The notes beneath the pieces were generated by a model. The model ran no database searches and was not told the origin of the DNA. It saw only the letters and a program-made list of their open reading frames with translations. A DNA stretch of 64,000 bases from Candidatus Altiarchaeales archaeon (GTDB lineage Archaea > Altiarchaeota > Altiarchaeia > IMC4 > SCGC-AAA252-I15). The stretch covers positions 130,137 through 194,136 of the forward strand of contig WJMO01000006.1 in the NCBI GenBank assembly GCA_014727915.1, in the 5' to 3' direction. The position numbers and the translations under genes are program-made. Within the stretch, counting starts at the first letter, position 1. Every line of letters begins with the position of its first letter. Positions 18,063-38,856 of this stretch are shown here, one piece after another.

Positions 18063-18122
18063 ACAAGGTAACCAATAGGATACCCCAAGGTTTATATTGG
18101 ACAACAACCAAATAGAGAATGC

Positions 18123-18141: not shown

Positions 18142-18182
18142 GTCTGGTTTTATATGTGTTAAAAGAAGTAGGTGATGCAAGT

Positions 18183-18419
18183 ATGGACAAGATAAAAGTG
18201 TACTCGACCCCGACATGCCCCTGGTGCAAGAAGCTGAAGGGATGGTTGGACGAGAAAGGAGTCAAATACGAGGACTTTGACGTCTCCTCAGACCACGAGG
18301 CAGCCCGTGAGATGATAGAGAAGAGCGGACAGATGGGAGTGCCCCAGACAGACATCGGAGGCAAGGTCATAGTGGGATTCGACCCGGACTCCATCGAGAA
18401 GGAATTAGAAGATGCATGA
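18183..18419 (+). CDS. Glutaredoxin/NrdH-like thiol-disulfide oxidoreductase
   Basis: CPWC active site; ATG 18183 preceded by GGTGA; track start 18156 is probably too early. Confidence 0.75.
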   Translation: MDKIKVYSTPTCPWCKKLKGWLDEKGVKYEDFDVSSDHEAAREMIEKSGQMGVPQTDIGGKVIVGFDPDSIEKELEDA

Positions 18420-19314: not shown

Positions 19315-19335
19315 ATAACATATTAGGTGATGTAA

Positions 19336-19824: not shown

Positions 19825-19835
19825 GGTGAAAAAGA

Positions 19836-20219
19836 ATGAGCACAAAAGAAAGGGGCGAAGTGTACAAGTGCAACGTCTGCGGCAACATCGTTGAGGTGCT
19901 GATCGTTGGCGGTGGAGAGCTAGTATGCTGCGAAAAGCCCATGGAACTTTTAGAGGAGAAGACAGAGGATGAGGGCAACGAAAAACACGTGCCAGTCATA
20001 GAGAAGACCGAGGACGGCGTTAAGGTGAAGGTCGGGAGCGTGCCACACCCCATGGAGGAAAAGCACCACATCCAATTTATCGAAGTGCACTCTGACGGGA
20101 TGATACACCGGAGATACCTGAAGGCAGGAGACAAGCCAGAAGCGGATTTCATACTGTCCTCGGAAGTGCAGAAGGCCCGGGAATACTGCAACATACACGG
20201 CCTCTGGGGTAGCGGATAA
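19836..20219 (+). CDS. dfx: Desulfoferrodoxin (2Fe superoxide reductase)
   Basis: N-terminal desulforedoxin motif CNVCGNIV...VCCEKPM; SOR domain KHVPVIE...HH...CNIHGLW. Confidence 0.85.
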
Positions 20220-20220
20220 G

Positions 20221-20367
20221 GTGACGGGAAAGAGGCACTGGCGTTGCAACGTCTGCAACGACATACACTACGGCAACGCAGGCCCCAAAGTCTGCCCTAC
20301 CTGCAACGTGGAGAACGCATACGTCGAGGTAGACACTGAAGAAGCCAGGAAAGTGATGGGACTATGA
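20221..20367 (+). CDS. Small rubredoxin-like zinc-ribbon protein (48 aa), not in ORF track
   Basis: GTG start 2 nt after dfx stop; WRCNVCNDIHYGNAGPKVCPTCN (CxxC-x16-CxxC); stop overlaps ATG of next gene (ATGA). Confidence 0.5.
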   Translation: MTGKRHWRCNVCNDIHYGNAGPKVCPTCNVENAYVEVDTEEARKVMGL

Positions 20368-20630
20368 ACAAGGAGGAACTGCTCGAGGCCTGGAAGAGGT
20401 TCACGGAAAAGAACGACTTCAGGCTGAACCCGGACAAGGAGCACGTGGACATGATACTGGACGGCGTTCTAGCTAACGAGAAGGAACACGGCCTGAAGCT
20501 CTGCCCCTGCAGGATCCGGGACGGCACCAGAGAAAGAGACCTTCAGCTCATCTGCCCCTGCAACTTCAAAACCCACGAAACATGGGCTGAGAAGGGACAA
20601 TGCTGGTGCGGGCTTTTCGTGAAAAGATGA
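20364..20630 (+). CDS. Ferredoxin:thioredoxin reductase catalytic-subunit-like protein
   Basis: CPC...CPC...CWC spacing characteristic of FTR catalytic subunit. Confidence 0.7.
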   Translation: MNKEELLEAWKRFTEKNDFRLNPDKEHVDMILDGVLANEKEHGLKLCPCRIRDGTRERDLQLICPCNFKTHETWAEKGQCWCGLFVKR

Positions 20631-20642
20631 GCCATGCACGCC

Positions 20643-21023
20643 CTAGGTTATGGCCATGTGGCATTGGGCCCTGACAGAAGGGTCCGATATCCTATCGCAT
20701 AGTTTACGGTTGCCAGTCGCCACCCCGACCCTGCCGATGCAAAGTTCCCTATGTTCCGGTACAGAGACCTTATCGCATATTTTAACGTCCATGAGCTCAG
20801 AGGCGGTGTTAATGTAACACAGGTCCTTGAGATTTCCCTCACGCCCCTCACACGCACCCGGGTCAGTGTACTCTGCAGTGGGCTCGCCCGCGTCATCTTC
20901 CGCCCGTGGGTCCTCTGGCATCATATTCGGCCTTGAAGGCACTGCAACGGCAGCCCCGCCAACACCCTCCCCTCCAATGCACCCGCATAAGAGCAGAATA
21001 GAGAGTACTGCGAAGAATCTCAT
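20643..21023 (-). CDS. Lipoprotein with cysteine-pair repeats (same family as 13452..14576)
   Basis: Signal peptide + CGC; DLCYINTAS...KICDKV...RELCIG...RKLCDRISDP...AQC. Confidence 0.5.
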   Translation of the reverse strand: MRFFAVLSILLLCGCIGGEGVGGAAVAVPSRPNMMPEDPRAEDDAGEPTAEYTDPGACEGREGNLKDLCYINTASELMDVKICDKVSVPEHRELCIGRVGVATGNRKLCDRISDPSVRAQCHMAIT

Positions 21024-21029
21024 AGCATA

Positions 21030-21587
21030 CTATTCGACATACCTGTTCTTATATGCGAACTCGCTGGCTTCCTTCCGGGGAGGCCTCTGCTTCTCCCCCA
21101 GTCTCTGCTTCTCGCTCAGATAGTCGGGGACGGACTCACTGTGCCTGCCCACAACCAACAAGGCTATGACCTCGTATTCGCCGGGTATGCCAAGAACCTC
21201 GCGCACCTTCTTGGGGCTGTAGCCCGCGATGGGATGGGCCACCAAACCTAGTTCGGTGGCTTGGAGGATCATGAAGGCCGTCGCCAAACCGACGTCGAAG
21301 TTGTTATAAACGCGATCCTTTATCACGCAGTCATCGTCTGGCTTGCTGAAGACAGCCACTATCAGCGAAGCCTCCCTAGCCCACCTATTGCCATCTGACA
21401 GGGCCCCATGAAGCTCGGACAACACCGCAGGATCGTATGCGAGCACGTAGCGCCAGGGCTGGTTGTTGTTGCAGGAGGGAGCGAGGCGGGCGGCAGACGC
21501 AAGATCATCGACCAACTCTTCCGTTACCTCGAACTTCTCCAGGGCACGGTAAGCCCTCCTCCCCTCAATGGCCTCGCGGACATCCAC
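21030..21587 (-). CDS. Nitroreductase-family protein
   Basis: 185 aa; nitroreductase-like FMN-binding pattern (RRAYRAL...PSCNNNQPW). Confidence 0.7.
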   Translation of the reverse strand: MDVREAIEGRRAYRALEKFEVTEELVDDLASAARLAPSCNNNQPWRYVLAYDPAVLSELHGALSDGNRWAREASLIVAVFSKPDDDCVIKDRVYNNFDVGLATAFMILQATELGLVAHPIAGYSPKKVREVLGIPGEYEVIALLVVGRHSESVPDYLSEKQRLGEKQRPPRKEASEFAYKNRYVE

Positions 21588-21588
21588 T

Positions 21589-22089
21589 TTACATCGTAAC
21601 GGTCTTGAAGTCGTGGAACTCCCCCGTTTCGGTCACGAACTCCGCCTCAGACTCGAGTATGGAACGGTGCTTCTCCTCCTCCTTGACCATCTTTTCGAAG
21701 AATATCTTGGACTCGTCGTCGGGGGCGTTCGCGGACATCCAATTGTAGAGGTCGATGCTGTTCTCCTCCGCCTTTATGGCGATGTTCAGCGCATCCAAGG
21801 CGTCAGCCATGTCGTCCAAGCTGCCGCCTGGAACTTTCTCCTCGAAGACGCCGCTAGGGTCGTATTCCTTCTTCGAATCCACGTACATGCAATACTGCTC
21901 GTCGTATAACCGCTTGTATACTTCAGCGATGTTGTTAAAATGCACCCGCTCCTCGGAGGCGAGATGCTCGAACATTGCACTACCGTCCTTGTTGTATGTC
22001 TTCTTCGCGCAGCCCAGGTAGAAAGCCTCACCCTCCAACTCCAGGTCCAACGCCCTGTTAAAACCCTCGCAAACGTCCTTCACATCCAT
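21589..22089 (-). CDS. Rubrerythrin-family ferritin-like diiron protein (no rubredoxin domain)
   Basis: E..E..H diiron pairs; ATG at 22089 preferred over TTG 22110; TATA-like box ~22 nt upstream. Confidence 0.65.
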   Translation of the reverse strand: MDVKDVCEGFNRALDLELEGEAFYLGCAKKTYNKDGSAMFEHLASEERVHFNNIAEVYKRLYDEQYCMYVDSKKEYDPSGVFEEKVPGGSLDDMADALDALNIAIKAEENSIDLYNWMSANAPDDESKIFFEKMVKEEEKHRSILESEAEFVTETGEFHDFKTVTM

Positions 22090-22244
22090 TTTGAAACCAC
22101 ATTTTTTCAAATTTTTTAAAATATTTCCGAATTATTTAGGAATTTCCCAAAACAATTTATAACCCGTAGGGTATATAAAAGACTTGGTATGCGCGGAGTT
22201 ACCTGGTTCTATTTTAAAAGAGAACCACATCTGATTAAAACACG

Positions 22245-25470: not shown

Positions 25471-26097
25471 ATGAGAAAGCTGCTTAGGGAGATCGAATCC
25501 CTAAAGGCTTCGCCCGTCGGCGATAGCATACGTGAGAGGATGGGAGAGTTCGAATCCTGCGGCAGGGAAGACTGTTGCACCCTGTTCAAAGAGCTGTGCT
25601 TCTGCATACTCACGGCGAACTTCACGGCCGAACGGTCCATCAGGATACAAGAGGCAGTCGGCGACGGCTTCATCAATCTATCGGAGAAGAAGCTGGCCAA
25701 GAAGCTGAGGGAACTGGGTCACAGGTTCCCGAACGCCCGCGCAGGATACATCGTGTCGGCGAGGAAGCACAAGAAGCCACTAGAGAAGGCGTTGAAATCC
25801 TTCAAGGACGAAACTGACCTGAGGGATTGGCTGGCCGAGAACGTCAAAGGCCTGGGCTACAAGGAGGCTAGCCACTTCCTGAGGAACGTAGGGTTCAAGA
25901 ACGTGGCGATAATTGACTTCCACATAGTGGACCTGCTGGTTAAGCACGAGCTCATAGATAGGCCGAATACTATGACGAAGAGGAGATACCTTGAGGTGGA
26001 GGAGGTGTTGAAGAGGATAGCAGAGGAGGCAGGCGTGACCCTTGCCGAGCTGGACCTCTACCTATGGTACATGGAGACCGGCAGGATATTAAAGTGA
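25471..26097 (+). CDS. 8-oxoguanine DNA glycosylase/AP lyase, Ogg2-type (HhH-GPD)
   Basis: 208 aa; FCILTANFTAE block and HhH region. Confidence 0.65.
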   Translation: MRKLLREIESLKASPVGDSIRERMGEFESCGREDCCTLFKELCFCILTANFTAERSIRIQEAVGDGFINLSEKKLAKKLRELGHRFPNARAGYIVSARKHKKPLEKALKSFKDETDLRDWLAENVKGLGYKEASHFLRNVGFKNVAIIDFHIVDLLVKHELIDRPNTMTKRRYLEVEEVLKRIAEEAGVTLAELDLYLWYMETGRILK

Positions 26098-26115
26098 GAG
26101 AGGATAATCAATTAC

Positions 26116-26985
26116 ATGGTGGATGACAGTATCAGAGAAGACATCCTGAAAGCCCAGGAGAACGAGATAACGGAGTACCTCATCTACAGGAGACTTGCGG
26201 AAGCCACCAGCGACCGGAAAAACAGCGAATTGCTTAGGAGGATAGGCGAGGACGAGCTGGCCCACTATGAATTCTGGCGAGATCACAGCGGAGAGGACGT
26301 TAAACCCGACACGTTCAAGGTGTGGCGATACACCATGGCCGCTAAGCTGTTGGGTCTGACGTTCGCGGTGAAGCTGATGGAGCAGGGTGAGGAACGGGCG
26401 CAGATAGCATACGATGATATCTCAAAGCACATCCCAGAAGCTGCTAGGATAATCGAGGAGGAGGACGAGCATGAAGGGCAGCTGCTGGGCATGTTGGACG
26501 AGGAGAGGCTGAGGTACATGGGGTCTGTCGTGCTGGGACTGAACGACGCCCTCGTGGAGTTGACCGGCGCACTGGCAGGGTTCACACTCGCCTTCCAGGA
26601 CAGCAGACTAGTTGCTGTTACGGGTTTGATAATGGGTTTCGCGGCGTCGCTTTCCATGGCAGCCAGCGAGTACCTGGCAACCAAGTCGGAGGATGATGGC
26701 AAACACCCGGTTAAAGCCTCGGTGTACACCGGCTCCGCTTATGTGCTGACCGTGGCGCTTCTGATACTGCCCTACCTAGCATTAACCAACATCTACCTGA
26801 GCCTGGCGTTCACGTTGGTGAACGCAATCCTGGTGATCGCGTTCTTCACATTCTACATCTCAGTCGCGAAGGACCTAAGCTTCAGAGAGCGGTTCCTGGA
26901 GATGGCGGGCATCAGCATGGGAGTGGCCCTGCTCACCTTCATAATCGGGTACGCTGTAAGGTCCGTGTTCGGAGTCGACTTCTAA
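26116..26985 (+). CDS. VIT1/CCC1-family Fe/Mn transporter with N-terminal ferritin-like domain
   Basis: Ferritin-like (E...EDEHEGQ) N-terminus fused to VIT1-type TM domain. Confidence 0.7.
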
Positions 26986-29426
26986 AACTTTTTGATCTTC
27001 GCCCTCCGCAGCATGTTCGCGTTGGTCACCACCGTTATGGAGCTGGTCGCCATGGCAATCTCGGCTATCACCGGATGGGCCAAACCAAGCACCGCCGCCG
27101 GCAGGGCTATAAGGTTGTAGAAGAACGCCCAGAAGAGGTTCTGCTTGATCTTGGAGAACGTAGCCCGCGAAAGTTTAACTGCCGTGACAACCGACGACAG
27201 TTCCCCGCGTACGAGAGTCACGTCCGCTGCTTCGATCGCTATGTCCGTGCCGGTCCCGATGGCTATGCCGACGTCAGCTTGGGTAAGTGCTGGGGCGTCG
27301 TTTATGCCGTCGCCGACCATCGCTACAACACCGCTCTCCCTCTGCAACCTCTTTATCTCATCTACCTTGCCGTCTGGCAGGACCTCCGCCAGAACACGTT
27401 CTATGCCCGCCCTCTCAGCTATGGCCTCAGCGGTCCTCTGGTTGTCGCCGGTTATCATTGCAGGCTCCAGTCCGAGAGCCTTCAGCTCGGCTATGGCCTC
27501 CACCGAGTCCTCCTTCAATGTGTCGGCAACCGCGATAACACCAGCCAGTTCACCGTCCACCGCGACGAACATGGCGGTTTTAGCCTCTCCCTCGAGCCTC
27601 TGGACCTCTTCGACCGCAGGATAAACGTCAACGCCCGCATCGGACATGAGACGCCGGCTGCCAACGTGAACCACCTTCCCGCTGACCTCTGCCCGGACTC
27701 CCTTGCCGGACACGGACTCGAAGCCGGTGATGTCCCTGAGTTCCGCCGAATCCGCCCGGGCCTTCTCTACTATCGCCTCGCCCAGAGGATGCTCCGAGCC
27801 GGACTCGACACTGGCCGCAAGAGAAATCAAACCACCAGCCCCGCCGTTAAATGGTATCACATCGGTCACCTCGGGCTTTCCCTTGGTTATGGTGCCGGTC
27901 TTGTCGAATACTATGGATCTAACGTCCTTCAACGCCTGCATGGCAGCGCCATTCCTTATTAGTACTCCGTTCTCAGCCCCCATCCCACTGCCGACCATCA
28001 GCGCCGTGGGGGTCGCGAGGCCGAGCGCGCAAGGGCATGCGATCACAAAGACCGCCACAGTGGCGAATACCGCGAGAGAAACCGAATCGTGAGTCAAGTC
28101 AACCCAAGGAAGATAATCCTGGAGGAGGCCTGCGCCGACCTTCATTGTGCCGGGAAACAGCATCCAGGAGGAGAAAGTCAGCAACGCCACAACCACCACT
28201 ACCGGCACGAACACGCCAGTGACCCTGTCTGCGAACTCCTGTATCGGCACCTTCGTTCCCTGAGCCTCCTCGACCATGCGGATGACATTAGCAAGGAACG
28301 TGTCCTTACCCACCCTGGTGGCTCGGACCTTCAAAAGGCCGTTCTGGTTCACCGTCGAACCAATGACCTCATCGCCTGCGTTCTTGGCGACCGGCATGGA
28401 CTCTCCCGTGGCCATGCTCTCGTCCACGGAACTCGAACCGTCGAAGACCACCCCGTCAGTTGGTATCTTCTCCCCCGGGCGGACGACCATGACATCACCC
28501 ACAGCAACATCCTTCAGCTGAACCTCTTTTTCAACCCCGTCAACGATTACACGGGCCGTCTTAGCCTCCAGTTTCAATAGCTTCTTGATCGCCTGGGACG
28601 CCCTGCCCTTCGCCCTCGCCTCAATGTACCTGCCGGTGAGGTGGAAGCTCATTATCATCGCCGAAACACCAGCGTAGTTCAATATGGGAGTGAAAAGAAC
28701 CGCGACACCCGTGAGATACGAAGACAATGTCCCCATGGCTATGAGAACGTCCATGTTGCCGCTACCATGCCGGACCGAGTTCAAGGCGCTCTTGTAGGTG
28801 GAGGAGCCGGCCCACGCGAGGACGGGAGCCGCCAACACGACCATTCCAATGTTGAACACCCGCATGTTGGGCCATGCTACCCCAATGAACATCTCGGGGA
28901 TCATCCACACCATTATCGGGACCGTGAACGCCCATGCGATGAACGCCCTCCTCCGCGCCTCGGAGTATTCGCCATCCTCGTCCTCTTCGACTTCCTCGTC
29001 TTCCACTACCTCGAAGCCAGCCGCTTCAACAGCCGATTTAAGCTCATCATAGCCGACCTTGACAGGGTCATAGTTGACGGTCGCCCTTTCGCTCGCGAAG
29101 TTCACGACCGCATCCACACCATCCAGTTTTTTCAGAGCATCCTCGGTGTTCTTGGCGCAGCTAGCACAGTGCATCCCCTTGACCTTGAAGGTTAATTTTC
29201 GATTGTCAGCTTCCTCCACGTCGTAGCCCGCGTCTTCAACGCGCTTCCTGATATCTTCCCCTCCGACCTTGTCAGGGTCGAATTCGACATATGCCTTCTC
29301 AGAGGCGTAGTTGACATTGGCGGATGAGATGCCATCCAGCTTCTTCAACGCCTTCTCTATGTTAGCGGCGCAACCCGCACAGTGCATTCCCTTAACCTTG
29401 AACGACTTCTTCATCATCTTATCCAA
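26982..29426 (-). CDS. copA: Heavy-metal (copper-type) P1B-type ATPase with two N-terminal HMA domains
   Basis: GMHCAGCA and GMHCASCA metal-binding motifs, [22 protein letters not shown]. Confidence 0.9.
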
Positions 29427-29430
29427 CCCC

Positions 29431-30054
29431 TTAATAGAATCTGACCCCCTCTTTTAAATCGTCTTTCTCGATGGTCACGAAACCATCCTCCACAGCATGC
29501 GGAAGATATGCAGGCCAGCAACCTCCTCCACGGTTCATCCCGCCCAAATCGTCTATCCTGAAGTGCCTTCCGCAGTTCACGCATTTCACGTCGGAACCAA
29601 CTTGTGCGTATCCCTTGGATCCTCCGCAGACTTCGCAGGCGTCGAATGCGGTCCTAACCTCTCCGTCACTTCCCAAGACCACGAGATACCTTATCGTCTC
29701 GCCTCCGAAGTCAAAGCTGTATTTGCCGATCTGAGAGGATATCTCAGACAAGGGTATCCTGACCACACTATCATCAGAGCCGATAGCAGACTGGGAGTCA
29801 GACCCGGATACAACACTCCCAACAACATCAGAGACTGCATTTGACTCTTCCGCTCTAGGAGCGTCATTTCCCGACCCACCGGACAAAACCGCGAACGCGG
29901 CCGCCAGGACGACCAAGCCTAACAGCAGGTGTGCGCTGCCAAAACCTCCACCTCCATCAACCGATGCCTGCCCGCCGGATTCTTCTGACACTCTCACGCT
30001 ACCGCTCTTAGATGCTCGCCCTCTATTTTTCTCCCTTTTTCCCTTTCTTGCCAT
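29431..30054 (-). CDS. Membrane-anchored protein with CxxCG...CxxCG zinc-ribbon-like motif (DUF2318-like?)
   Basis: TM helix then DACEVCGG...CVNCGRHF; start probably ATG 30054. Confidence 0.45.
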
Positions 30055-30058
30055 TTTA

Positions 30059-30421
30059 TCATTCACCAGTAAACCCGGCACCTGGACCTATGCCACAGCT
30101 GCCCTCTTCGATGTCTCCCTTGCACTGGGGGCAGACTTCATCGAATCTTCTCTGGGCTATCATCTCATCGCACCTGCATATGCCGTCATCCCAAAGCCAA
30201 TGCCCCATGAAGCACATGTCACACACCGGGCTGATACAGCACTTGTACTCCCCGGACTCAACCTTCTCGGCTATCAGAGAGTTCACCTCATCCAAGGCAT
30301 TAGCCCGCCTAACCTGGTAGCTGTCAGGATAGGGCGGGTTCCCGCCTGAAGAGTATGCCAGAATGGATGATATGCCTATCACCGCCGCCAACGCGACAAG
30401 TCTCTTATCCACCGGCACCAC
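30059..30421 (-). CDS. Secreted/anchored Cys-rich putative metal-binding protein
   Basis: Signal/TM then CCISPVCDMC...CRCDE...CPQCKG...SCG (11 Cys in ~60 aa). Confidence 0.45.
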   Translation of the reverse strand: MVPVDKRLVALAAVIGISSILAYSSGGNPPYPDSYQVRRANALDEVNSLIAEKVESGEYKCCISPVCDMCFMGHWLWDDGICRCDEMIAQRRFDEVCPQCKGDIEEGSCGIGPGAGFTGE

Positions 30422-31073
30422 CCAGCTCTGAGCCTATCACTTCCCGGAATGCGCTCATCGGCTGGGCGCCGACTACCTTCTGCCCGCCTATGAAGAACGT
30501 CGGGGTCCCGGACACCCCCCGGCTCCTTCCTTCTGAGATATGGCTTTCCACCAGCGACTCCTTCGAGCTGGAGTCCAGGCACCTGTTGAACTGCAACCTA
30601 GCTAACCCAAGGTCAGAGGCTATGGACTTCAGGACATCCGAGTCTCCGACATCATAGCCTGAACCGTGCCTTTCGAAGAGCATGTCATGGTATTCCCAGA
30701 ACATGCCCTGGTCCCTGGCGCACTCAGCGGCCTCGGCAGCCTTGTCAGCGCCCCTGTGAAAGGAGAGGGGAAACTGCCTGAAAACAACCTCAATCCGGCC
30801 CTCATACTCTTCACGTATCTGGTTGACAGTGGTCGCAGCCCTCGCGCAGTAGGGGCATTTGAAGTCGCTGTAGACGACAACCTGCAAAAGACCCCCACCG
30901 CCTGAATCAGATGCAACCACGGCATTAGGGGGCGACTGAACGCCCTCAGCCGGGGGTGTTTCTGATGGCTGCAATAGCGCGTATGCAGCCACCGCGAACA
31001 ACACGGCGATGACGACGCTCAACGCCAGTATGTTATTCCCACCGCAGCAACCGTCTGATCCTTCCCGTTTCAT
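30405..31073 (-). CDS. DsbA-like thioredoxin-fold thiol:disulfide oxidoreductase, membrane-anchored
   Basis: CPYC active site; start probably ATG 31073 overlapping upstream stop. Confidence 0.7.
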   Translation of the reverse strand: MKREGSDGCCGGNNILALSVVIAVLFAVAAYALLQPSETPPAEGVQSPPNAVVASDSGGGGLLQVVVYSDFKCPYCARAATTVNQIREEYEGRIEVVFRQFPLSFHRGADKAAEAAECARDQGMFWEYHDMLFERHGSGYDVGDSDVLKSIASDLGLARLQFNRCLDSSSKESLVESHISEGRSRGVSGTPTFFIGGQKVVGAQPMSAFREVIGSELGGAGG

Positions 31074-32356
31074 CTTCCACCTCCGCATCCGCAACCGCAT
31101 CCGCCGCCACCGCATGAACCGCCACATGAGCCCCCACCTGGGACCTCGATGGTCTCAACCGCCTCTGCAACAGCAGCAGGGTCCTCGATGTTTATGTCTT
31201 CTTTTACCACGAAAACCCCGGGTATCATCCCCATCCAGCAGCTCCAGGGTATAGTACCAGAATCGTCTGGCGTGAACTCGATCGTCTGCAAACCGGGTTC
31301 TATGTCGAATTCCAAACCTAGCTTGGGCACCTGTATGGCGTTGTTACATCCGTTTATCTCCTTGCCGTCTATTACCCACTTGACTGGAACCCCCCTTTTC
31401 AGAACGAACTTGTCCGGCTTCCAACCGTACCGGTTCACCTCCATCTCTATTACCTGGTAGCCGCCTTCAAGCTCCAATGAGAGGTTGCCTGGGTCGTCTT
31501 CCATCGCCTGAGCCGACACAAGGATGGTGTTGAAGTCCGCTCCCGTGCCAGTCAACGCCAACCCCCGGTTCACCATAACCAGGCCCAACAGTATAACTAC
31601 TACCCCAGAGTAGCGAACTATCTTATGGGTCATCCTGGAGCTAACCACCGATGTCAAAACCCCGAAGCCGAGCAGGACAGGTAGTGTGCCCAACCCGAAC
31701 ACTGCAAGGTATAGAGCGCCGTGGACTGGACTGCCAGATGATGCTGCCAGTATGTACACCGCCTGCAGTGGGCCGCAGGCTATCATCAGCCCGTTCAACA
31801 ATCCGATAACCGCGGGGCTCCTGCTCTCATTCTCCTTTTCAGACCGCCACCTGTCTATGAACGAGGGCATTGTAAGCCTGAAGCGACGGAACCATTTCAT
31901 CATTCCCAGCATGTTGAACCCGAACAAAACCAGGAACAAACCCGCGAGTATGGCCGCCGCACCCCGCATGAACGGGGTGAAAGTGAAGAAAGACCCTATG
32001 AAACCGAATACGGCACCGAAGAACGCGTAGGACACTGTCTTGGACAATCCATACGTTAGGTGGGAGCCGTAGTTGATACGCCCGTCCGCGGCCTCCTTGG
32101 CAGAGTAGCTTACCACAAAACCCCCACACATGGCAACACAGTGGAAGCCGGTCAGCAGGCCTATTATGAACAGCAACATTATTGAAGTGTCACTGTCCAA
32201 TGAGGGCATGTACACGCCAAAGCTCTCATGAAGCATATAGTATCCCCCGGCGAGGATGGCCAACACACCCAAAACCACGGAGACGTTCTTCAAGTCCGCA
32301 GTTGAAAACGCTATCCTTCTGTTGATATTAGAATTTTTCATGTTTATCCAGAGCAA
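31070..32356 (-). CDS. DsbD_2/CcdA-like transmembrane domain fused to cupredoxin-like domain with Gly/Cys-rich tail
   Basis: TM Cys pair GFHCVAMCGGF; C-terminal beta-rich domain; tail GGGSCGGSCGGGGCGCGCGGGR. Confidence 0.55.
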   Translation of the reverse strand: MLWINMKNSNINRRIAFSTADLKNVSVVLGVLAILAGGYYMLHESFGVYMPSLDSDTSIMLLFIIGLLTGFHCVAMCGGFVVSYSAKEAADGRINYGSHLTYGLSKTVSYAFFGAVFGFIGSFFTFTPFMRGAAAILAGLFLVLFGFNMLGMMKWFRRFRLTMPSFIDRWRSEKENESRSPAVIGLLNGLMIACGPLQAVYILAASSGSPVHGALYLAVFGLGTLPVLLGFGVLTSVVSSRMTHKIVRYSGVVVILLGLVMVNRGLALTGTGADFNTILVSAQAMEDDPGNLSLELEGGYQVIEMEVNRYGWKPDKFVLKRGVPVKWVIDGKEINGCNNAIQVPKLGLEFDIEPGLQTIEFTPDDSGTIPWSCWMGMIPGVFVVKEDINIEDPAAVAEAVETIEVPGGGSCGGSCGGGGCGCGCGGGR

Positions 32357-32397
32357 CTAGGATGAAACAATATAAGCCAACATAGGTGAAACTGGTT

Positions 32398-32871
32398 TCA
32401 TTTAAGGACCACTATGTTTGTCAGGCCTCTCCTACGCCTCTCTAGCAGGTTCTTGGACTCCAGCCGGTCCAGGTTCCGGGTTACCTTAACCTTTGACAGC
32501 CCGGTCTTCTCGGATATCTCACTCTGGAAGATTGTGCCTCCAGAGTCTGAGATCAGCTGGTAGACTGTCTTCTCATCCCCATCCAGGCTTCCGAGGTTCT
32601 CCAGCCACTTCTCCCTGCCTGAAGGCTCCTGATCCAATCTGCCGCCCTTCAAAGCCAGGTATATGCCGATGAAGAACAGTATCACGACACCAGCCAATCC
32701 GCCATAGAAGACGGGAGGGACCTTGAAATGGATCATCTCGCAGCTTTCCCCGCAGGTGCAGGACTGGGTGCTCATATCGGCGAGAGTGTCTAGGAGAACT
32801 GACAATAACGCCACCAGAAAGACCGCCAATAGTATCAGCACAATCCCTACTTCCCGCAATCCGGCCCTCAT
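32398..32871 (-). CDS. Membrane-anchored wHTH regulator with CxCxxxC motif
   Basis: TM - STQSCTCGESCEM - TM - C-terminal wHTH (KTGLSKVKVTRNLDRLESKNLLERRR). Confidence 0.55.
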   Translation of the reverse strand: MRAGLREVGIVLILLAVFLVALLSVLLDTLADMSTQSCTCGESCEMIHFKVPPVFYGGLAGVVILFFIGIYLALKGGRLDQEPSGREKWLENLGSLDGDEKTVYQLISDSGGTIFQSEISEKTGLSKVKVTRNLDRLESKNLLERRRRGLTNIVVLK

Positions 32872-32877
32872 CTTAAG

Positions 32878-33726
32878 CTAAACCCATTCCTCCCTTAGCT
32901 TTTCTCCTTTTATGCTTATTACCGCCGATTTCACAGGCACCTTCCGCTGAGCCCTTTCAACAGCCTCTTTCGCCATCTGCAGCAGCCCAGTGCAGCATGG
33001 GACTTCCATTGTCACCACCGTGAGCGTGTTTATCCCGGCGTCATCAATGAGTGAAACGAGCTTCTCCACGTACGTCTGCTGTTCGCTGTCCAGTTTCGGG
33101 CAGGCTATCGCCAGCCGCCTTCCCTTCAAGTACTCACCGTGGAAGCGCCCGTAAGAGTATGCCGCACAATCAGCCGACAACAGCACGTCAGCGCCCTTGA
33201 AGTAAGGTGCCAAAGGCGATACCAGGTGCATTTGGACAGGCCACTGCCTCAGCTGCGAGGAAACCTCACCAACCACTTTACCCACTACCTCCGGGTCATG
33301 GGAGAAGTCCATAGTCCTGGCTCCCGGGCAGCCCCCCGCAGACCCTGAGCAAGGCGTCTCAGGTGCTGCGGTTTCCGGGACCTCCAAACCCTTATCCTTC
33401 AGGAATCCGACAGCCTCGTTGTAGTATCCCATCTCCCCATGATCTCTCAGATGTTCAAGGTGGGCTTTTATCGTGTTATAGCCCTGCTTGACGATGTTCT
33501 CCATGACCCTGCGCTCATCGTAGGGTTCCGCCTCCCGCTCGACTATGTCTATCGCGCCTTCGGGACAGTGTCCCATGCAGGCTCCGAGCCCGTCGCAGAA
33601 GAGGTCGCTGACCAGCCGGGCCTTGCCGTCTATCATCTGCAACGCTCCCTCGGGGCAGTTGGGTATGCACAAGCCGCACCCTGTGCACTTGTCCTCGTCT
33701 ATCTCGATTATGCTACGCTTTACCAT
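32878..33726 (-). CDS. 4Fe-4S dicluster-domain protein with additional Cys-rich C-terminal domain
   Basis: CTGCGLCIPNCP and CDGLGACMGHCP ferredoxin motifs; C-terminal CAAY...CPKL...PCCTG. Confidence 0.65.
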   Translation of the reverse strand: MVKRSIIEIDEDKCTGCGLCIPNCPEGALQMIDGKARLVSDLFCDGLGACMGHCPEGAIDIVEREAEPYDERRVMENIVKQGYNTIKAHLEHLRDHGEMGYYNEAVGFLKDKGLEVPETAAPETPCSGSAGGCPGARTMDFSHDPEVVGKVVGEVSSQLRQWPVQMHLVSPLAPYFKGADVLLSADCAAYSYGRFHGEYLKGRRLAIACPKLDSEQQTYVEKLVSLIDDAGINTLTVVTMEVPCCTGLLQMAKEAVERAQRKVPVKSAVISIKGEKLREEWV

Positions 33727-33737
33727 GTTGTATCCTC

Positions 33738-34085
33738 TCAGCCGAACACGAAGGCTGATAGTGTGGGCAGCAGCAGGTACAAGACCATCAACGTCAGAGA
33801 GACATAGGTGACTATGCTAACAGCCACCATCGTCCTATGGGCTTTGACGTCGTTCAAGGTGCATGTGCCGCCGCACTGCCTTTTGATCTTGAAGTAGAGG
33901 GACAAGAGCATGAAAACCGTGCCCGCCGCTATGAAGAAGAGCTTATACCTTGGAAGCTTCAATGCTGCGGTCATGCTCCCAGCCCCCAATGTCCCGAATA
34001 TCATGACCAGTATCAGGGGCAGCGTGCAGCAGCTCGACGCTATGATCGTGGCCTTCACCCCCGTCCAGAATCCCTTCAATCCCAT
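33738..34085 (-). CDS. MerT-like heavy-metal transport membrane protein
   Basis: 115 aa, 3 TM; vicinal Cys pair in TM1 (ASSCCTLPL) and loop Cys pair (CGGTC). Confidence 0.5.
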   Translation of the reverse strand: MGLKGFWTGVKATIIASSCCTLPLILVMIFGTLGAGSMTAALKLPRYKLFFIAAGTVFMLLSLYFKIKRQCGGTCTLNDVKAHRTMVAVSIVTYVSLTLMVLYLLLPTLSAFVFG

Positions 34086-34309
34086 CCTATCCTATCAACC
34101 TCGCCTTTGAAATCCTCTCCAACAGCCTCTGCTGCCGGTGGTTCTCTCGTGTTCGGTGATTTGGCCGGCCTGCGCCGAGCCTCCTTAACGCTCTCCAAAC
34201 CGTAGAATATTAGGGCAGCCAGCAAGACCACCACTAATATTATTATGAATATCCTGTTCTCGCTGACTCCCCCGCCGCCTTCCTTTTTGTTAAGCGTCTT
34301 CAGGCTCAT
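34076..34309 (-). CDS. Small single-TM membrane protein, hypothetical
   Basis: 77 aa; stop overlaps the MerT-like start. Confidence 0.4.
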   Translation of the reverse strand: MSLKTLNKKEGGGGVSENRIFIIILVVVLLAALIFYGLESVKEARRRPAKSPNTREPPAAEAVGEDFKGEVDRIGWD

Positions 34310-34348
34310 CTTTTGAAAGTAAAAAAAAATGATGTTATAGATACTGTC

Positions 34349-34375
34349 CTAGCAGCAACCGCATCCTGGACCCAT
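34349..34375 (-). other. Candidate 8-codon Cys-rich mini-ORF (MGPGCGCC) with strong Shine-Dalgarno
   Basis: GGAGGTGA 5 nt upstream of ATG; followed by a T9 run and then the ATG of 34076..34309. Confidence 0.3.
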
Positions 34376-34458
34376 AAAGCTCACCTCCAAAGATTATAGT
34401 TACTTTTTAACACTATATGTTGTGTTCTTTGAATAAATAGGTGTTGGTAACCGGATTG

Positions 34459-34998
34459 TTACCCTACGCCAAGGTCCAACTCCACCATTATCTTATGGGA
34501 TTGGTCAAGTGGCAGTATCAGGTTGGGGTATTCCCCGAAGAAGTCCCGCGCCTCAGAGGTTGTTAGCTGCTCCCGGAGCCTTTCCGCGTGTTCGAGTATC
34601 TCCTCCTTAGTCCTCTTCTCCAGGCTGGGACAGTACTCCAGGGAATCAAGTGTAAGGTAGGCCTTACCATCCTTTTTCATGACGAAGAAGGGCCATAGAC
34701 GACACCAGAAGGGCCCGACCTCGTATACCCTGCACTTCACTCCGTCTGTGAAGGGGCAGATATAGTGGCCGTTCTCCATGATCTTGAACGTGACCCTGTG
34801 GGTGTTCTCAGACTCCCTCTTGAACAGGCCCTCGGAGAAGCCCAACGCCAAGGCAGCCTCGTATTCCTCGTCTGTGAAGACCGGAAAGAACGAGGGGTAG
34901 TGGGGGCTGAACCTGCAACAGGGATCAGTGCAGGCGAAACAATCCTCGGAGGAAGTCAGCATATCAAGGTCTGGTATTTTCATCTTTTCAAACCTCAC
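34459..34998 (-). CDS. YkgJ-family CxxCxxCC putative Fe-S/zinc-binding protein
   Basis: CFACTDPCC motif near N-terminus; additional conserved Cys. Confidence 0.6.
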   Translation of the reverse strand: MRFEKMKIPDLDMLTSSEDCFACTDPCCRFSPHYPSFFPVFTDEEYEAALALGFSEGLFKRESENTHRVTFKIMENGHYICPFTDGVKCRVYEVGPFWCRLWPFFVMKKDGKAYLTLDSLEYCPSLEKRTKEEILEHAERLREQLTTSEARDFFGEYPNLILPLDQSHKIMVELDLGVG

Positions 34999-35989
34999 CG
35001 ATCAGATGGTCTATTATGAGCTCGCAGATGTTAGCGGAGTATTCGCCGGTCCGCCTTATGCTCTCGGCTATATGGTCGACAGAGTGAATCTTCTGGGGTT
35101 CGATGCCATAGGCTTCGGCGGATATCGAATTGCAGAGGGGGTCCAGGTCTGGCAGGGATTCGATTGTCCGGTTAGCATTGAGAACATCGTTGTTGAACCA
35201 TGAGTTCATGCTCTCATTGAATATACCCATGGCCGTGTCGTTGGCTGCCCTGATAGATTCCCGCACAGGCTTGTATTTTTTACTGGTCAGGGACGGTGCG
35301 TTCTTTGCGATGGTGACCGTGTGATCGGATATCCGTTCCATTATCATGCTCGCCAGATAATGGAATCTCGCTTCCTGAGGGAGAACGCCCATGTTCTTGG
35401 AGAGCAACGGGTTGTTGACTAACAGGTTATACTGGTGCGCTATAAGCCAGTGAAGTCGGTTAACCTCAACGTCCCTGGAAACCACGTCTTCTGCCAGCTT
35501 GATGCCTTTCTTGGAGAGGGTTGAAATGGCATCCTTTCGCATCGTGGTTATCAAGACGTGCATCCTATTGAGAGTATTGGCGAATGGCATCTCAACAGGG
35601 TTGAGTAAATCCCTTATCTGTATGAAGTTATCCGTCTCCTCCACAATCTCCGGGCCCACCGCCACCTGTATGAACTCTGTCACAGCCTCCCTCTTGTCGG
35701 TGCCCATGTGAGACTCCGACTCGACATCGATCAGAGTGTATCCCATAACATAGGCGCCGACGAGAAGCCTGAATAGGTATCTTGGGCTGAAGCTGTCCCC
35801 CACAGAGATCACCTTCTTACGCACTACGCTCTCGCCGGTCAGTTTTGGGACTATTGTCAGCGTGCCGTCTGGCTGCTGGAGAACGCCAACAGGCCTGTTC
35901 TTCGTAAGATTGTTATTGTCGACCCAATCCTTAGGCAGGGTTATCATGTAGGACGACCCACCCGTAACCTGTATTTTTCTCAGATCCAC
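34988..35989 (-). CDS. PhoU-like regulator with N-terminal AbrB/SpoVT DNA-binding domain
   Basis: VDLRKIQVTGGSSYMITLPKDWV swapped-hairpin motif then PhoU-like helical repeats; GTG 35989 preferred over track start 36139; A/T-rich promoter at 36000-36060. Confidence 0.65.
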   Translation of the reverse strand: MDLRKIQVTGGSSYMITLPKDWVDNNNLTKNRPVGVLQQPDGTLTIVPKLTGESVVRKKVISVGDSFSPRYLFRLLVGAYVMGYTLIDVESESHMGTDKREAVTEFIQVAVGPEIVEETDNFIQIRDLLNPVEMPFANTLNRMHVLITTMRKDAISTLSKKGIKLAEDVVSRDVEVNRLHWLIAHQYNLLVNNPLLSKNMGVLPQEARFHYLASMIMERISDHTVTIAKNAPSLTSKKYKPVRESIRAANDTAMGIFNESMNSWFNNDVLNANRTIESLPDLDPLCNSISAEAYGIEPQKIHSVDHIAESIRRTGEYSANICELIIDHLIGEV

Positions 35990-36080
35990 CAAAACAACCC
36001 CAAATACATAATATATATATTTTATGTCGGAAAGATATATAAATGATTCAACATATATATAATCGCTCCTGTGCATTAAA

Positions 36081-36266
36081 TTGGGAAGTCTAAAAGTGGG
36101 ACCGGAAAAAATTGTTGAAAACGCAAACGTGGGTGGCAATATGAATGGATACTGTTACATACCATACCAGTGCAAACATTTCGAAAAAAAGGACGGAAAA
36201 CGATGCGAGTGCAGACACTCCATATACGGAGACTGCTTCAACCCCCAGATGATGAAGGAGGACTGA
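36081..36266 (+). CDS. Small Cys-rich protein, hypothetical
   Basis: Likely real start at internal Met (MNGYCYIPYQC...CEC...C). Confidence 0.3.
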   Translation: MGSLKVGPEKIVENANVGGNMNGYCYIPYQCKHFEKKDGKRCECRHSIYGDCFNPQMMKED

Positions 36267-36270
36267 CAGC

Positions 36271-36579
36271 ATGGACGCCATAGTGCTATACGACCAGGAC
36301 GGAAAAAGAGCATCAGAAATCTCAACATACCTGGCAGAAAAAGACAAAAAACACACTATAGCGGAGACGATAGTCGAGTGCAAGGAAAGGATAAAAGGTC
36401 ATGGTAGGGGATTCCTGATGATCGGCGAATTCGACGGAGCAGAGGACATAAAAGGTCTTGCCGAGATCATACGGGAGGAGAACATCACGCCAGTGTTCTT
36501 CGACCTCTTCGACCCCGAAGAGAAAGACTACATGAACAGACTTCAAGAATATATCAACGTCAAGACACCCCAAGGGTAG
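36271..36579 (+). CDS. Hypothetical protein, weak receiver-domain-like pattern
   Basis: 102 aa, alternating beta/alpha pattern with acidic pocket-like residues; not a canonical response regulator. Confidence 0.35.
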   Translation: MDAIVLYDQDGKRASEISTYLAEKDKKHTIAETIVECKERIKGHGRGFLMIGEFDGAEDIKGLAEIIREENITPVFFDLFDPEEKDYMNRLQEYINVKTPQG

Positions 36580-37953: not shown

Positions 37954-38856
37954 ATGAGGCTTATATTGGTTACCTGCTTATTGTCTTCGATGGTGGATAG
38001 AATAGTATTGGCCGCGGGTCTACTGTTGCTGATAGTGTTCGCAGGCCTGGTCTTGGTGAACCTTAAGGACGAGCCCCGAACCATGTTCCCAACGACCACC
38101 ACTACCGTGCCGACCACTTCAACAACAGCGACTACTTCGACGACACAGACGTCAACAACCCTCCCAAAGCCCGATTCCACTACAACCACCTCGACCACCA
38201 CCTCGACGACTTTGAGGTATGTTGAAGTGAGGTGGAGCGACCTCAGCAAATGCCGGAGCACCTCCCTGGGCAGCATGAACACGCTGCTGGCGTGGGTGGG
38301 CGACGAGCTGGAGGGGAGTTGGGGGGAGAAGCCTGAGCCCAGGGCATATGTCACATGCGACAGCCCAGAGCTAATACCCGTGGACATAGTCACACTACGC
38401 GGCGGCAGGAGCATCGAACCCGTCAACGACGTCAACGGCACCTACAGGTTCATGGTGAAATGCGGACGCAACCAGCTGGCCGAAGACCTTAACGACTGCA
38501 GGGAGCTTAAAGCCTATTTCGACAGGAACACCATAACCGGCGAAGGTTCAGACTATACGGTAGTTGCCACGTCATCCTCAACCACCACAACCTTGAAGCG
38601 TAACCCTTACCTCGACAAGTTCCGGGGTAAGGGCTATCGCAAGGTTGACATGCACATATACTGGCTGTGCCCCAGCTGCGTGCCGGCAGTGAACAACCTG
38701 GTCATCGGCGAGCCGGGGGTGAAGAGCCGCAGCCTGGCCTACAAGCAGAACGTCAGCTACGTCATATACGACCCCACAGTCGTGGACCTGGAGAGGGTGC
38801 TGGAACTATCAGGCGCGGGGGGAGACGTAGAGGTATACCAGGACCTGGAAATCTGA
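37954..38856 (+). CDS. Membrane-anchored secreted protein with poly-Thr linker
   Basis: N-terminal TM; ~45-aa Thr/Ser-rich linker; Cys-containing globular domain. Confidence 0.5.
   Translation: MRLILVTCLLSSMVDRIVLAAGLLLLIVFAGLVLVNLKDEPRTMFPTTTTTVPTTSTTATTSTTQTSTTLPKPDSTTTTSTTTSTTLRYVEVRWSDLSKCRSTSLGSMNTLLAWVGDELEGSWGEKPEPRAYVTCDSPELIPVDIVTLRGGRSIEPVNDVNGTYRFMVKCGRNQLAEDLNDCRELKAYFDRNTITGEGSDYTVVATSSSTTTTLKRNPYLDKFRGKGYRKVDMHIYWLCPSCVPAVNNLVIGEPGVKSRSLAYKQNVSYVIYDPTVVDLERVLELSGAGGDVEVYQDLEI

Follow-up and report, generated by a model that had tools for sequence, protein, structure and literature searches.

A probable copper-defence gene cluster of an Altiarchaeales archaeon, with a DsbD_2–CupA fusion protein, a nine-cysteine membrane protein and a candidate membrane-tethered regulator

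The minus strand of an archaeal DNA carries, between positions 34375 and 26982, a compact array of genes that ends with the gene for a CopA-type copper-exporting ATPase. The DNA is a 64,000-nucleotide stretch of contig WJMO01000006.1, from a Candidatus Altiarchaeales archaeon; we refer to the whole of it as ‘the window’, and give positions in its numbering. To our knowledge, hardly any work has been done on how DPANN and Altiarchaeota archaea handle copper. The array comprises nine open reading frames (ORFs) of 77–814 aa, as given by the ORF listing, and one micro-ORF of eight codons, all on the same strand and either separated by gaps of 41 bp or less, or joined by short overlaps. A preliminary description of this DNA counted ten or eleven tightly packed genes here; the packing is as it said, and the number comes down to nine genes and the micro-ORF. 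Of the nine proteins, all but one, that of the 77-aa ORF, show strong matches to homologues or to families. The G+C content of the array (0.54–0.57) is the same as that of the remainder of the window.

Layout of the array

In the direction of transcription, the nine ORFs encode a 77-aa protein, a MerT-like protein, a ferredoxin-domain protein (‘Fer4X’), a winged helix-turn-helix (wHTH) protein, a DsbD_2–CupA fusion protein, a DsbA-like protein, a cysteine-rich protein (‘Cys120’), an FtrD-like protein and CopA. From the micro-ORF on, the junctions are a 39-bp gap, a 10-bp overlap, and gaps of 11, 6 and 41 bp. The fifth and sixth genes then overlap, by 58 bp if the longest ORF is taken and by 4 bp (ATGA) if the sixth gene begins at ATG 31073, a start preceded by its own GGAGGTGG. 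Overlaps of 17 and 23 bp follow, and a gap of 4 bp before CopA. A 56-aa ORF at 29414–29584, which overlaps the FtrD-like gene, looks spurious. The last five genes, which we call the core unit, and the regulator and control region that precede them, are as follows; the three genes further upstream are listed later.

32398–32871, minus strand: 157-aa ORF; candidate membrane-tethered wHTH regulator, with two transmembrane (TM) helices, CTCGESCEM in the outer loop and a winged helix of MarR/DUF7343 type in the cytoplasm (Pfam, topology prediction)
32363–32400, minus strand: operator and promoter in the gap between the wHTH and DsbD_2–CupA genes (conserved palindrome, TATA-like box, half-site)
31070–32341, minus strand: DsbD_2 membrane domain of seven hydrophobic segments, followed by a CupA-like cupredoxin, predicted to face outward, and a Cys/Gly tail (Pfam, alignment, hydropathy); the ORF runs from 32356 to 31070 (428 aa), with a likely start at ATG 32341 (423 aa)
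31202–31474, minus strand: CupA-like cupredoxin domain within the preceding protein, with predicted binuclear Cu(I) ligands C337, C373, M375 and M377
31073–31144, minus strand: C-terminal Cys/Gly tail of the same protein, GGGSCGGSCGGGGCGCGCGGGR, with a CGCG core invariant in the alignment of 23 homologues
30405–31073, minus strand: DsbA/BdbD/ScsC-like thioredoxin-fold oxidoreductase with a CPYC active site and an N-terminal anchor (Pfam, PDB comparison); the ORF runs from 31127 to 30405 (240 aa), with a likely start at ATG 31073 (222 aa)
30059–30421, minus strand: Cys120, 120 aa, membrane-anchored, with nine conserved cysteines; outside Pfam and NCBIfam families (motif alignments)
29431–30081, minus strand: FtrD-like (DUF2318) protein, 216 aa; the N-terminus is basic, there is a single TM helix, and CEVC, CVNC and GGC lie in a domain predicted to face outward (PF10080, 80.5 bits; cutoff 26.3); an alternative ATG lies at 30054
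26982–29426, minus strand: CopA (814 aa), an ATPase of the P1B-1 group that exports Cu(I)/Ag(I); two HMA domains stand at its N-terminus (Pfam E1-E2_ATPase, Hydrolase and two HMA matches; NCBIfam)

A reading of the array as a single operon was ruled out by the internal promoter and operator: because these lie, conserved, in the 41-bp gap at 32363–32400, the array is not one simple operon, and so would comprise at least two transcription units. Nor is the arrangement of the genes due to chance, because two related genomes share the synteny of the last five genes and have the others within 10 kb. A scan of positions 26000–36500 against Rfam found no family above threshold, and a scan for sigma-70 promoters and terminators gave counts at background level, the sigma-70 model not being applicable to archaea.

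The DsbD_2–CupA protein

The first protein of the core is identical (100%) to P0001, a protein from an Altiarchaeales metagenome-assembled genome; across the window proteins compared, identity to proteins of an Altiarchaeales genome of this type is 99–100%. (Proteins and loci drawn from other genomes are designated by P and L numbers, respectively.) Its membrane domain matches the Pfam families DsbD_2 (154.6 bits; cutoff 24.9) and DsbD_TM (33.6 bits; cutoff 27.1). Two membrane motifs, HCxxMCGG and CGP, are invariant in an alignment of 23 homologues, and the invariant residues of the DsbD_2 core—H72, C73, M76, C77 and C194-G-P—amount to three cysteines, one histidine and one methionine. Such a set would suit Cu(I) as well as thiol–disulfide exchange. 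DsbD and CcdA transporters have one essential cysteine in each of two TM helices, flanked by proline (PCxxP-type).

The domain that follows the membrane segments matches Cupredoxin_1 below the Pfam cutoff (21.5 bits). The window sequence alone matches solved CupA (2mry/4f2e) with an E-value of 6.6e-11, its nGC…wsCwMgM aligned with pC…aCgMnM of CupA, and a profile of the 23 homologues matches CupA at 6.1e-17 and the cupredoxin metal-binding domain of CopA from Streptococcus pneumoniae (4f2f) at 4e-8. The CupA ligands correspond in the alignment to C337, C373, M375 and M377, all four of which are invariant in the 23 homologues. Beyond the cupredoxin lies the Cys/Gly tail, which is present in all archaeal homologues and occurs also on unrelated membrane anchors at L085 (91 aa) and L088 (315 aa). 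This suggests that the CGCG tail may be an independent cysteine-rich module. In these two cases the tail, GGSCGG…GCGCGG, ends a stand-alone anchored protein (L085, 5311–5586) and an HMA/membrane/HMA-like protein (L088, 555–1502).

Hydropathy reveals seven hydrophobic segments, with clusters of Lys and Arg at the N-terminus and in alternate loops, including eight in the loop 154–181. The predicted topology is N-terminus in and C-terminus out, with the CupA-like domain and the tail facing outward. Independently, the N-terminal HMA domains of homologues lack a signal and so should be cytoplasmic, and the seven TM helices that follow would put the C-terminus outside. The window protein is without the N-terminal HMA domain that most homologues carry, and its locus is without the copZ gene of its relatives.

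The family is large. Among 8000 candidates scored, 2078 matched at E ≤ 1e-5; in species-representative genomes there are at least 553 loci, 553 of 600 candidate stretches having been confirmed. Members occur in DPANN archaea, Firmicutes, Spirochaetes, candidate phyla radiation (CPR) bacteria and methanotrophs. The homologues of Methylocystis, Methylobacter, Methylococcaceae and Beijerinckiaceae (L009, L012–L015 and L017–L019) are about 48–53% identical to the archaeal protein and mostly have no CopA nearby; these methanotroph and proteobacterial homologues may reflect inter-domain transfer and a different role, perhaps in uptake. Naive ORF calling gave uninformative neighbourhoods at three of the methanotroph loci (L009, L014 and L018).

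The DsbA-like, Cys120 and FtrD-like proteins and CopA

The DsbA-like protein matches the Pfam families Thioredoxin_4 (91.8 bits) and DSBA (88.1 bits). Among solved structures it matches a DsbA chain (4pwp, 4.5e-17), BdbD (4.5e-8) and the copper-tolerance protein ScsC (4gxz, StScsC, 3e-7), as well as 6nen and 6mhh, and it is nearer to the DsbA chain and BdbD than to ScsC. At L005, a VKOR-like membrane ORF (9144–9644) lies between the DsbA-like and DsbD_2–CupA genes, which implies a DsbA/VKOR oxidising pair within a DPANN copper operon. The FtrD-like protein contains the two CxxC pairs (CEVC149 and CVNC167) and the fifth cysteine (GGC186) that mark the FtrD-like/DUF2318 family. Its homologues adjoin the DsbD_2–CupA gene in 25 of 81 loci.

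Cys120 matches no family in Pfam or NCBIfam. Behind its single TM anchor the motif is CCIxPxCxMC(F/Y)xGxWxWxDGxCRCD…VCPQC…GxC, in which nine cysteines, one methionine and two tryptophans are conserved and eight of the cysteines are invariant in both alignments made. By a word-indexed search, 29 relatives came to light, none of them annotated and all from DPANN-type archaea; when 1.84 billion representatives were searched exhaustively with a profile, there were no more than 89 at E ≤ 1e-3, 43 of them at E ≤ 1e-10. Foldseek found no PDB fold match for an AlphaFold2 model of the protein (mean predicted local-distance difference test score, 75.7). We consider Cys120 to be, on this sequence evidence, a new and rare nine-cysteine family. 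In every context retrieved (the window, L082/L083, L084, L085, L087 and L088, six loci that come from several lineages) its gene adjoins DsbA-like, FtrD-like, DsbD_2 or CopA genes. Distant relatives are fused to a canonical CcdA-type membrane domain (P0322), to membrane and HMA-like domains (P0280) and to a CuA-type cupredoxin (P0345), and because of these fusions the family can be tied to copper and to a transmembrane conduit for thiols or metal. By the positive-inside rule, the domains of the DsbA-like, Cys120 and DUF2318 proteins are predicted to lie outside the membrane.

CopA scores well above the cutoffs of TIGR01511 (578.6 bits; cutoff 397) and TIGR01525 (629 bits; cutoff 346). Its motifs include GMHCAGC13 and GMHCASC84 in the two HMA domains, CPC464, DKTGT508, YNLIALP770 and MATSS792. 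The metal-site signature in its TM helices—CPC, YN(x4)P and MxxSS—is that of the P1B-1 Cu(I) type and not of the Zn/Cd/Pb type. CopA-type pumps transport Ag(I) too.

The membrane-tethered wHTH protein and its operator

The wHTH gene lies immediately before the core unit. Its product matches DUF7343 (47.2 bits; cutoff 27.6) and MarR_2 (30.4 bits; cutoff 27). The predicted topology places a 27-residue loop with cysteines outside the membrane and the winged helix inside. Across 15 homologues the loop keeps the motif C-x-(C/H)-G-x-x-C-x-M. The archaeal copper regulators that we know of are all cytoplasmic.

The palindrome TGAAACCAGTTTCA lies at 32400–32387; the TGA with which it opens is the stop codon of the wHTH gene. 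A TATA-like box, CTTATA (32376–32371), follows, and then a half-site, TGTTTCA (32369–32363). Within the window, TGAAAC-NN-GTTTCA has this one match, even when one mismatch is allowed. The same succession of palindrome, TATA box and half-site stands just upstream of the first cop-type gene at L001, L082/L083, L084, L085, L004, L005, L006, L008, L010 and L088; at L016, L020, L022 and L023 the palindrome and TATA box occur without the half-site, bringing the total to 14 archaeal loci from DPANN and Altiarchaeota. There are 10 exact matches to TGAAAC-NN-GTTTCA, spread over 10 of the 20 archaeal sequences (380 kb), where shuffled sequences gave a mean of 0.04; 991 kb of bacterial loci contain none. 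In nine loci the site is at most about 110 bp from the stop codon of the wHTH gene, and in five of these the stop codon falls within the palindrome. Start codons lie 15–22 nt after the half-site, a spacing that fits leaderless transcripts. Because of this promoter geometry (the distance from half-site to start), ATG 32341 was chosen as the start of the DsbD_2–CupA gene; it agrees with the NCBI call of 423 aa for P0001. No earlier report of this operator was found in the literature searched. Taken together with the position of its gene, these features make the membrane wHTH protein the probable regulator of the core unit.

Conservation of the neighbourhood

Eighty-one loci were translated in six frames and searched with the window proteins, and genes were counted when they lay within 5 kb of the DsbD_2–CupA gene, the anchor. 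The counts are lower bounds, as 32 of 80 loci reach less than 3 kb on one side. Given for DPANN/archaeal loci, for Firmicutes and other bacteria, and for methanotroph/proteobacterial loci in turn, they are:

CopA: 12/13, 30/58, 2/8
Membrane wHTH protein: 11/13, 0/58, 0/8
DsbA-like protein: 4/13, 0/58, 0/8
FtrD-like protein: 3/13, 21/58, 0/8
Fer4X: 2/13, 0/58, 0/8

The order of the five core genes is that of two related Altiarchaeota genomes (L082/L083 and L084), which read CopZ, HMA–DsbD_2–CupA, DsbA-like, a cysteine-rich protein of 121–127 aa, FtrD-like and CopA. In both, the wHTH, Fer4X and MerT-like genes lie within 10 kb upstream, among genes for cysteine biosynthesis, cysteinyl-tRNA synthetase and iron–sulphur assembly. 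At L085, L087 and L088 parts of the core are recombined, and L085 adds an FtsX-type ATP-binding cassette (ABC) transporter, a small Met-rich protein and a CopA that bears a YHS domain. The Met-rich protein (8595–8819; 74 aa, MMEGYGMMGGMG) is a membrane protein encoded directly upstream of CopA, and is a likely Cu(I)-binding accessory.

The upstream unit

Upstream of the wHTH gene, and loosely linked to the rest of the cluster, are the MerT-like gene, the 77-aa ORF and the gene for the iron–sulphur protein Fer4X. The features of this region are:

32878–33726, minus strand: Fer4X, 282 aa, cytoplasmic, with a 2x[4Fe-4S]-type ferredoxin domain and, besides an HxxHxxxH segment, a C-terminal domain that contains cysteines (Pfam PF27217, AF_0155; Fer4 families)
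33738–34085, minus strand: MerT-like protein, 115 aa, three TM helices, CC in the first and CGGTC in the cytoplasmic loop (sub-threshold family scores, motifs, topology)
34076–34309, minus strand: ORF of 77 aa with a single TM helix (weak match, E = 2.7e-4, to the N-terminus of a 193-aa protein at L084)
34349–34375, minus strand: micro-ORF, MGPGCGCC and stop, just before the 77-aa ORF, with a strong Shine–Dalgarno-like GGAGGTG upstream and a T9 run after it; a candidate only
34395–34445, minus strand: candidate upstream promoter region, weakly indicated by TTTATT / TAACTATAAT in an A+T-rich stretch and by an inverted repeat, TATAGT-N11-ACTATA

Fer4X belongs to a very large and highly conserved family, in which archaeal and bacterial proteins are 60–69% identical. 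The HxxHxxxH segment is invariant, as are four of the five conserved cysteines of the C-terminal domain. In seven archaeal loci the gene adjoins wHTH or cop genes. The quality of a structure prediction was too low for interpretation, and a literature search for AF0155 returned unrelated papers only. One might guess that Fer4X donates electrons or reduces cupric copper, but only because iron–sulphur cupric reductases are known elsewhere. Elsewhere Fer4X has a small ORF as neighbour (L002, 2038–3299; L023, 3636–4857; L083, 2839–3980; L084, 8470–9645), which is of Cupin_2 type and downstream at L083, L084 and L023, and is a 139-aa ORF upstream at L002; the window copy has no such partner.

The MerT-like protein scores 27.2 bits against Pfam MerT (cutoff 32.9) and 30.9 bits against NCBIfam MerT (cutoff 150), and has both cysteine pairs. 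Homologues were found only in the Altiarchaeota loci L083 and L084. The 193-aa protein of L084 is encoded beside the MerT-like gene there and ends in an HMA-like domain with a CPSC motif; the 77-aa ORF of the window is without the HMA part, and is probably a truncated N-terminal relative of a membrane-anchored MerP/HMA-like protein that is intact in L084. A domain homologous to the C-terminus of the L084 protein occurs elsewhere in the window: it is the CPSC HMA/MerP-like domain that ends a 300-aa protein (37954–38856, plus strand), which is anchored at its N-terminus and has long linkers rich in Ser and Thr.

The Cys-Cys end of the micro-ORF resembles the CGCG tails of the DsbD_2–CupA family. 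No similar micro-ORF was found in related loci, and we do not claim it as a gene. Inside the inverted repeat of the candidate upstream promoter region, AAAAAGTAACTAT (34395–34417) is common to the window and to L085 (about 4550–4575), where it lies upstream of the operator of that locus.

Flanking genes

Directly upstream of the array on the same strand (34459–36139, minus) are genes for a 179-aa CxxCxxCC/YkgJ-like protein (sub-threshold) and a 383-aa protein with PhoU and AbrB/MazE domains, which overlap by 11 bp. On the other side, a gene of the VIT1 family of iron/manganese transporters (26116–26985, plus), whose product has a ferritin-like region at its N-terminus, converges on CopA and overlaps its stop codon by 4 bp; genes for an Ogg glycosylase, PGI and a rhodanese lie beyond. 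An oxidative-stress island at 15450–22110 encodes a flavodiiron-type protein, a thioredoxin-reductase-like flavoprotein, ferritin, desulfoferrodoxin and rubrerythrin, and a similar set comes after CopA in L082. The end of the window (58001–64000) has a G+C content of 0.40–0.44, versus about 0.53 elsewhere, and includes a 1089-aa ORF (60440–63709, minus); this segment may be foreign DNA.

Comparison with known systems

The closest counterpart of the cupredoxin is CupA of S. pneumoniae, a membrane-anchored Cu(I) chaperone on the cytoplasmic side of the membrane, with a binuclear Cu(I) site (PMC7558416). The copY-cupA-copA operon of that organism (4F2E/2MRY) resembles the core unit in encoding a membrane-attached cupredoxin with Cys…CxMxM binuclear ligands together with CopA and a wHTH regulator. 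The two differ in several ways. Streptococcal CupA has a single TM helix and faces the cytoplasm, whereas the window domain follows a seven-segment DsbD_2 domain and is predicted to face outward; streptococcal CopA has a cupredoxin metal-binding domain, and window CopA has two HMA domains of ferredoxin fold; and the regulator is CopY in the one and a membrane-tethered MarR-like protein in the other.

In gut Firmicutes, membrane proteins of COG2836 (HMA and DsbD_2) and DUF2318 are inferred members of a CsoR copper regulon (PMC4938975). The protein family is the same and so is the association of CopA, DsbD_2 and DUF2318, but in Firmicutes the link comes from regulon inference only. This was the one regulon paper that we found in the literature on COG2836 and DsbD_2–copper proteins, and no functional study was found. 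The archaeal version adds the DsbA-like protein and Cys120, and has a membrane wHTH protein and a different operator in place of CsoR; from the window copy, in addition, the HMA domain and copZ have been lost.

Scs proteins of bacteria connect copper with the redox state of envelope thiols (PMC10907172). Salmonella ScsABCD/CueP, like the array, is a copper-linked set of a DsbD-superfamily membrane protein, a DsbA-like oxidoreductase (Cu(I)-binding in Scs) and an envelope copper-binding protein. No array gene has the architecture of ScsA, ScsB or ScsD, and the resemblance is one of analogy, not membership: ScsB has periplasmic thioredoxin-like domains and the canonical DsbD cysteines, whereas its partner here carries a CupA-like domain.

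Two further systems share single elements with the array. The fetMP-fetABCDEF genes of Campylobacter jejuni include DUF2318 with two CxxC pairs and a fifth cysteine, and membrane-anchored thioredoxin-fold proteins, and L085 adds an FtsX-type ABC transporter and a YHS domain to the likeness; fet, however, serves iron uptake with FetM and FetP, whereas the transporter of the window is a copper pump, and FetM and FetP were not found in the parts scanned. The mercury (mer) proteins MerT and MerP offer three TM helices, CC in the first, a cytoplasmic cysteine pair, and a counterpart of MerP in L084. MerT has a Cx5C spacing in its cytoplasmic pair, and the spacing here is Cx3C. Unlike in mer, the MerT-like protein is sub-threshold, its MerP-like partner is cut to 77 aa, and no MerA or MerP was found among the ten array or flank proteins scanned, nor any MerB in the array and the flanking genes examined.

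Proposed function and alternatives

The preliminary description read the array as an envelope system for copper or soft-metal and thiol homeostasis, with no operon name, and based this on a set of domain calls. When compared with Pfam and NCBIfam these calls were largely correct, CopA, DsbD_2, the DsbA-like protein, DUF2318 and the wHTH protein all exceeding their thresholds. The CopA-type ATPase is borne out by TIGR01511 and the Cu(I)-type motifs, including GMxCxxC in both HMA domains; the extracytoplasmic thiol–disulfide proteins by DsbD_2 (154.6 bits), by Thioredoxin_4 and DSBA (92 and 88 bits) and by the presence of ScsC among the nearest solved relatives; and the in-membrane wHTH sensor candidate by its two TM helices, its conserved outer cysteine loop and the conserved operator adjoining its gene. 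The cupredoxin fusion stands as well: it falls below the Pfam threshold, but matches solved CupA and keeps the copper ligands. The MerT-like assignment is upheld by both cysteine pairs but not by scores, which lie below the curated thresholds. Homologues of the genes do co-localise in related genomes. The reading as a whole is supported, and the system has no name, but its central association, CopA with DsbD_2 and DUF2318, had been noted before in the Firmicutes CsoR regulon.

We conclude that the cluster is probably a defence system against Cu(I), and possibly also Ag(I), organised in two adjoining units. In the core unit (32341 to 26982), CopA, on the evidence of homology, exports Cu(I) from the cytoplasm. 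Four anchored proteins would place thiol-, thioether- and Cys-rich domains outside the membrane—the CupA-like domain and CGCG tail on DsbD_2, the DsbA-like protein, Cys120 and DUF2318—and these outer domains could capture and buffer Cu(I) that is exported or incoming. The DsbA-like protein might maintain the proper redox state of the cysteines in these domains and in other proteins of the envelope, as in Salmonella ScsB/ScsC. The DsbD_2 domain, with His, Cys3 and Met within the bilayer, could serve as a conduit for Cu(I) or for electrons to the outer cysteines; of the two, a metal conduit is slightly favoured because most homologues have a cytoplasmic N-terminal HMA domain. The core would be transcribed from its own promoter, the TATA box of which lies between palindrome and half-site, and the membrane-tethered wHTH protein would bind the operator as a repressor, sensing copper via its outer C-x-C-G-x-x-C-x-M loop. 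The upstream unit (77-aa ORF, MerT-like protein, Fer4X and wHTH protein) might supply the regulator and accessory functions in soft-metal and redox chemistry.

Several points weigh against this reading. The topology of all the proteins is a prediction. The profile of 23 DsbD_2–CupA homologues matched no solved CcdA or DsbD chain in the PDB, leaving the metal and the electron roles alike without structural support, and a metal conduit is less easily argued for the window copy, which has lost the HMA domain and whose locus lacks copZ. The assignment of the wHTH protein to the operator rests on co-occurrence and is circumstantial, and at L001 the operator stands beside an unrelated soluble MarR protein, with no TM-wHTH protein seen in that locus; we ruled out kinship between this MarR and the TM-wHTH family (E = 0.45). 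In the upstream unit, the MerT-like protein is below its family thresholds and missing from DPANN loci, and bacterial Fer4X occurs in a non-copper context, between the genes for a Crp-family regulator and ferritin, with OsmC nearby.

An unlikely alternative is that the genes form a general thiol–disulfide system of the envelope, for oxidative folding or disulfide repair, in which DsbD_2 moves electrons, the DsbA-like protein acts broadly and CopA is a mere neighbour. The strong Pfam matches to DsbD_2, DsbD_TM and DSBA would be expected of such a system, as would the Cys120 relative fused to a canonical CcdA-type domain with PCxxP-like motifs, the VKOR-like ORF beside the DsbA-like gene of L005, and the abundance of oxidative-stress genes in the flanks of the window. 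The DsbD_2 domain, however, carries HCxxMCGG and CGP instead of two PCxxP cysteines, and the cupredoxin retains all four Cu(I) ligands of CupA. Its family, moreover, carries HMA domains, adjoins CopA in most archaeal loci and has been placed by a published regulon under the copper sensor CsoR.

We also think it improbable that the proteins acquire copper, importing it or handing it over to cuproproteins of the envelope. An outward Cu(I) domain, ligands in the membrane and a cytoplasmic HMA domain could equally work inward; methanotrophs encode close homologues of the DsbD_2–CupA protein (about 50% identical), as a rule with no CopA in the vicinity; and CopC/CopD importers occur in resistance operons. 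Yet the archaeal family is tightly linked to an exporter of the two-HMA CopA1 type, its Firmicutes homologues belong to the CsoR regulon, which is derepressed by excess copper, and the parts of the window examined showed no gene for a cuproenzyme.

Resistance to another soft metal—Hg(II), Ag(I) or Cd(II)—by uptake and detoxification in the manner of mer, via the MerT-like and HMA proteins, is about as unlikely. The cysteine pairs of the MerT-like protein, its pairing with a MerP-like CPSC protein in L084 and the transport of Ag(I) by CopA-type pumps speak for it, but the MerT-like protein is under both curated cutoffs and does not occur at any of the DPANN loci where the core is kept, and the ATPase signature (CPC/YN/MxxSS) is for Cu(I), not for Zn/Cd/Pb. 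A mercury operon in particular was rejected on these grounds and because the array and flanking genes examined include no homologue of MerA or MerB.

An iron-uptake module akin to C. jejuni fetABCDEF or FtrABCD (DUF2318, cupredoxin and thioredoxins) is very improbable and was rejected: DUF2318 and paired thioredoxins define the fet cluster (PMC10783030), L085 has the FtsX-type transporter and YHS domain of fet, and a VIT1 iron-transporter gene abuts CopA, but neither an Ftr1/FetM permease nor P19/FetP was found among the array or flanking genes scanned, the cupredoxin ligands are Cys/Met of the CupA type, and the partner transporter is a copper ATPase.

Significance

Copper operons that join a pump, chaperone-like proteins and a regulator are already known, and earlier work had noted the association of the core genes. 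The novel elements are the CupA identity of the cupredoxin and its predicted outward orientation, the Cys120 family, the recurrence of the CGCG tail as a module, and the pairing of an operator with a membrane wHTH protein across several archaeal phyla. That pairing, a candidate regulator–operator pair, amounts to a candidate regulon. CupA was reported in a few streptococci only; its metal site now appears in a large family with members in archaea, in Firmicutes and in methanotrophs, where it probably lies on the other face of the membrane. COG2836/DsbD_2 proteins, which are routinely mis-annotated as ‘sulfite exporter TauE/SafE’, can be flagged as likely copper proteins. Cys120 constitutes a putative new nine-cysteine domain, tied to copper genes in all contexts retrieved.

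A bolder proposal, which we offer tentatively, is that DPANN and Altiarchaeota archaea share a previously unrecognised envelope relay for Cu(I). In it, a DsbD-superfamily Cu(I) conduit with His, Cys3 and Met in the membrane would link a cytoplasmic HMA domain to an outward CupA-like domain, a CGCG tail and a nine-cysteine domain, and a new class of membrane-tethered MarR-like repressor would sense outside copper by a cysteine loop and bind TGAAAC-NN-GTTTCA sites straddling the TATA box. If the mechanism proposed above for the cluster is right, it would parallel the link between copper stress and envelope thiol redox in bacterial Scs, in organisms with very small genomes.

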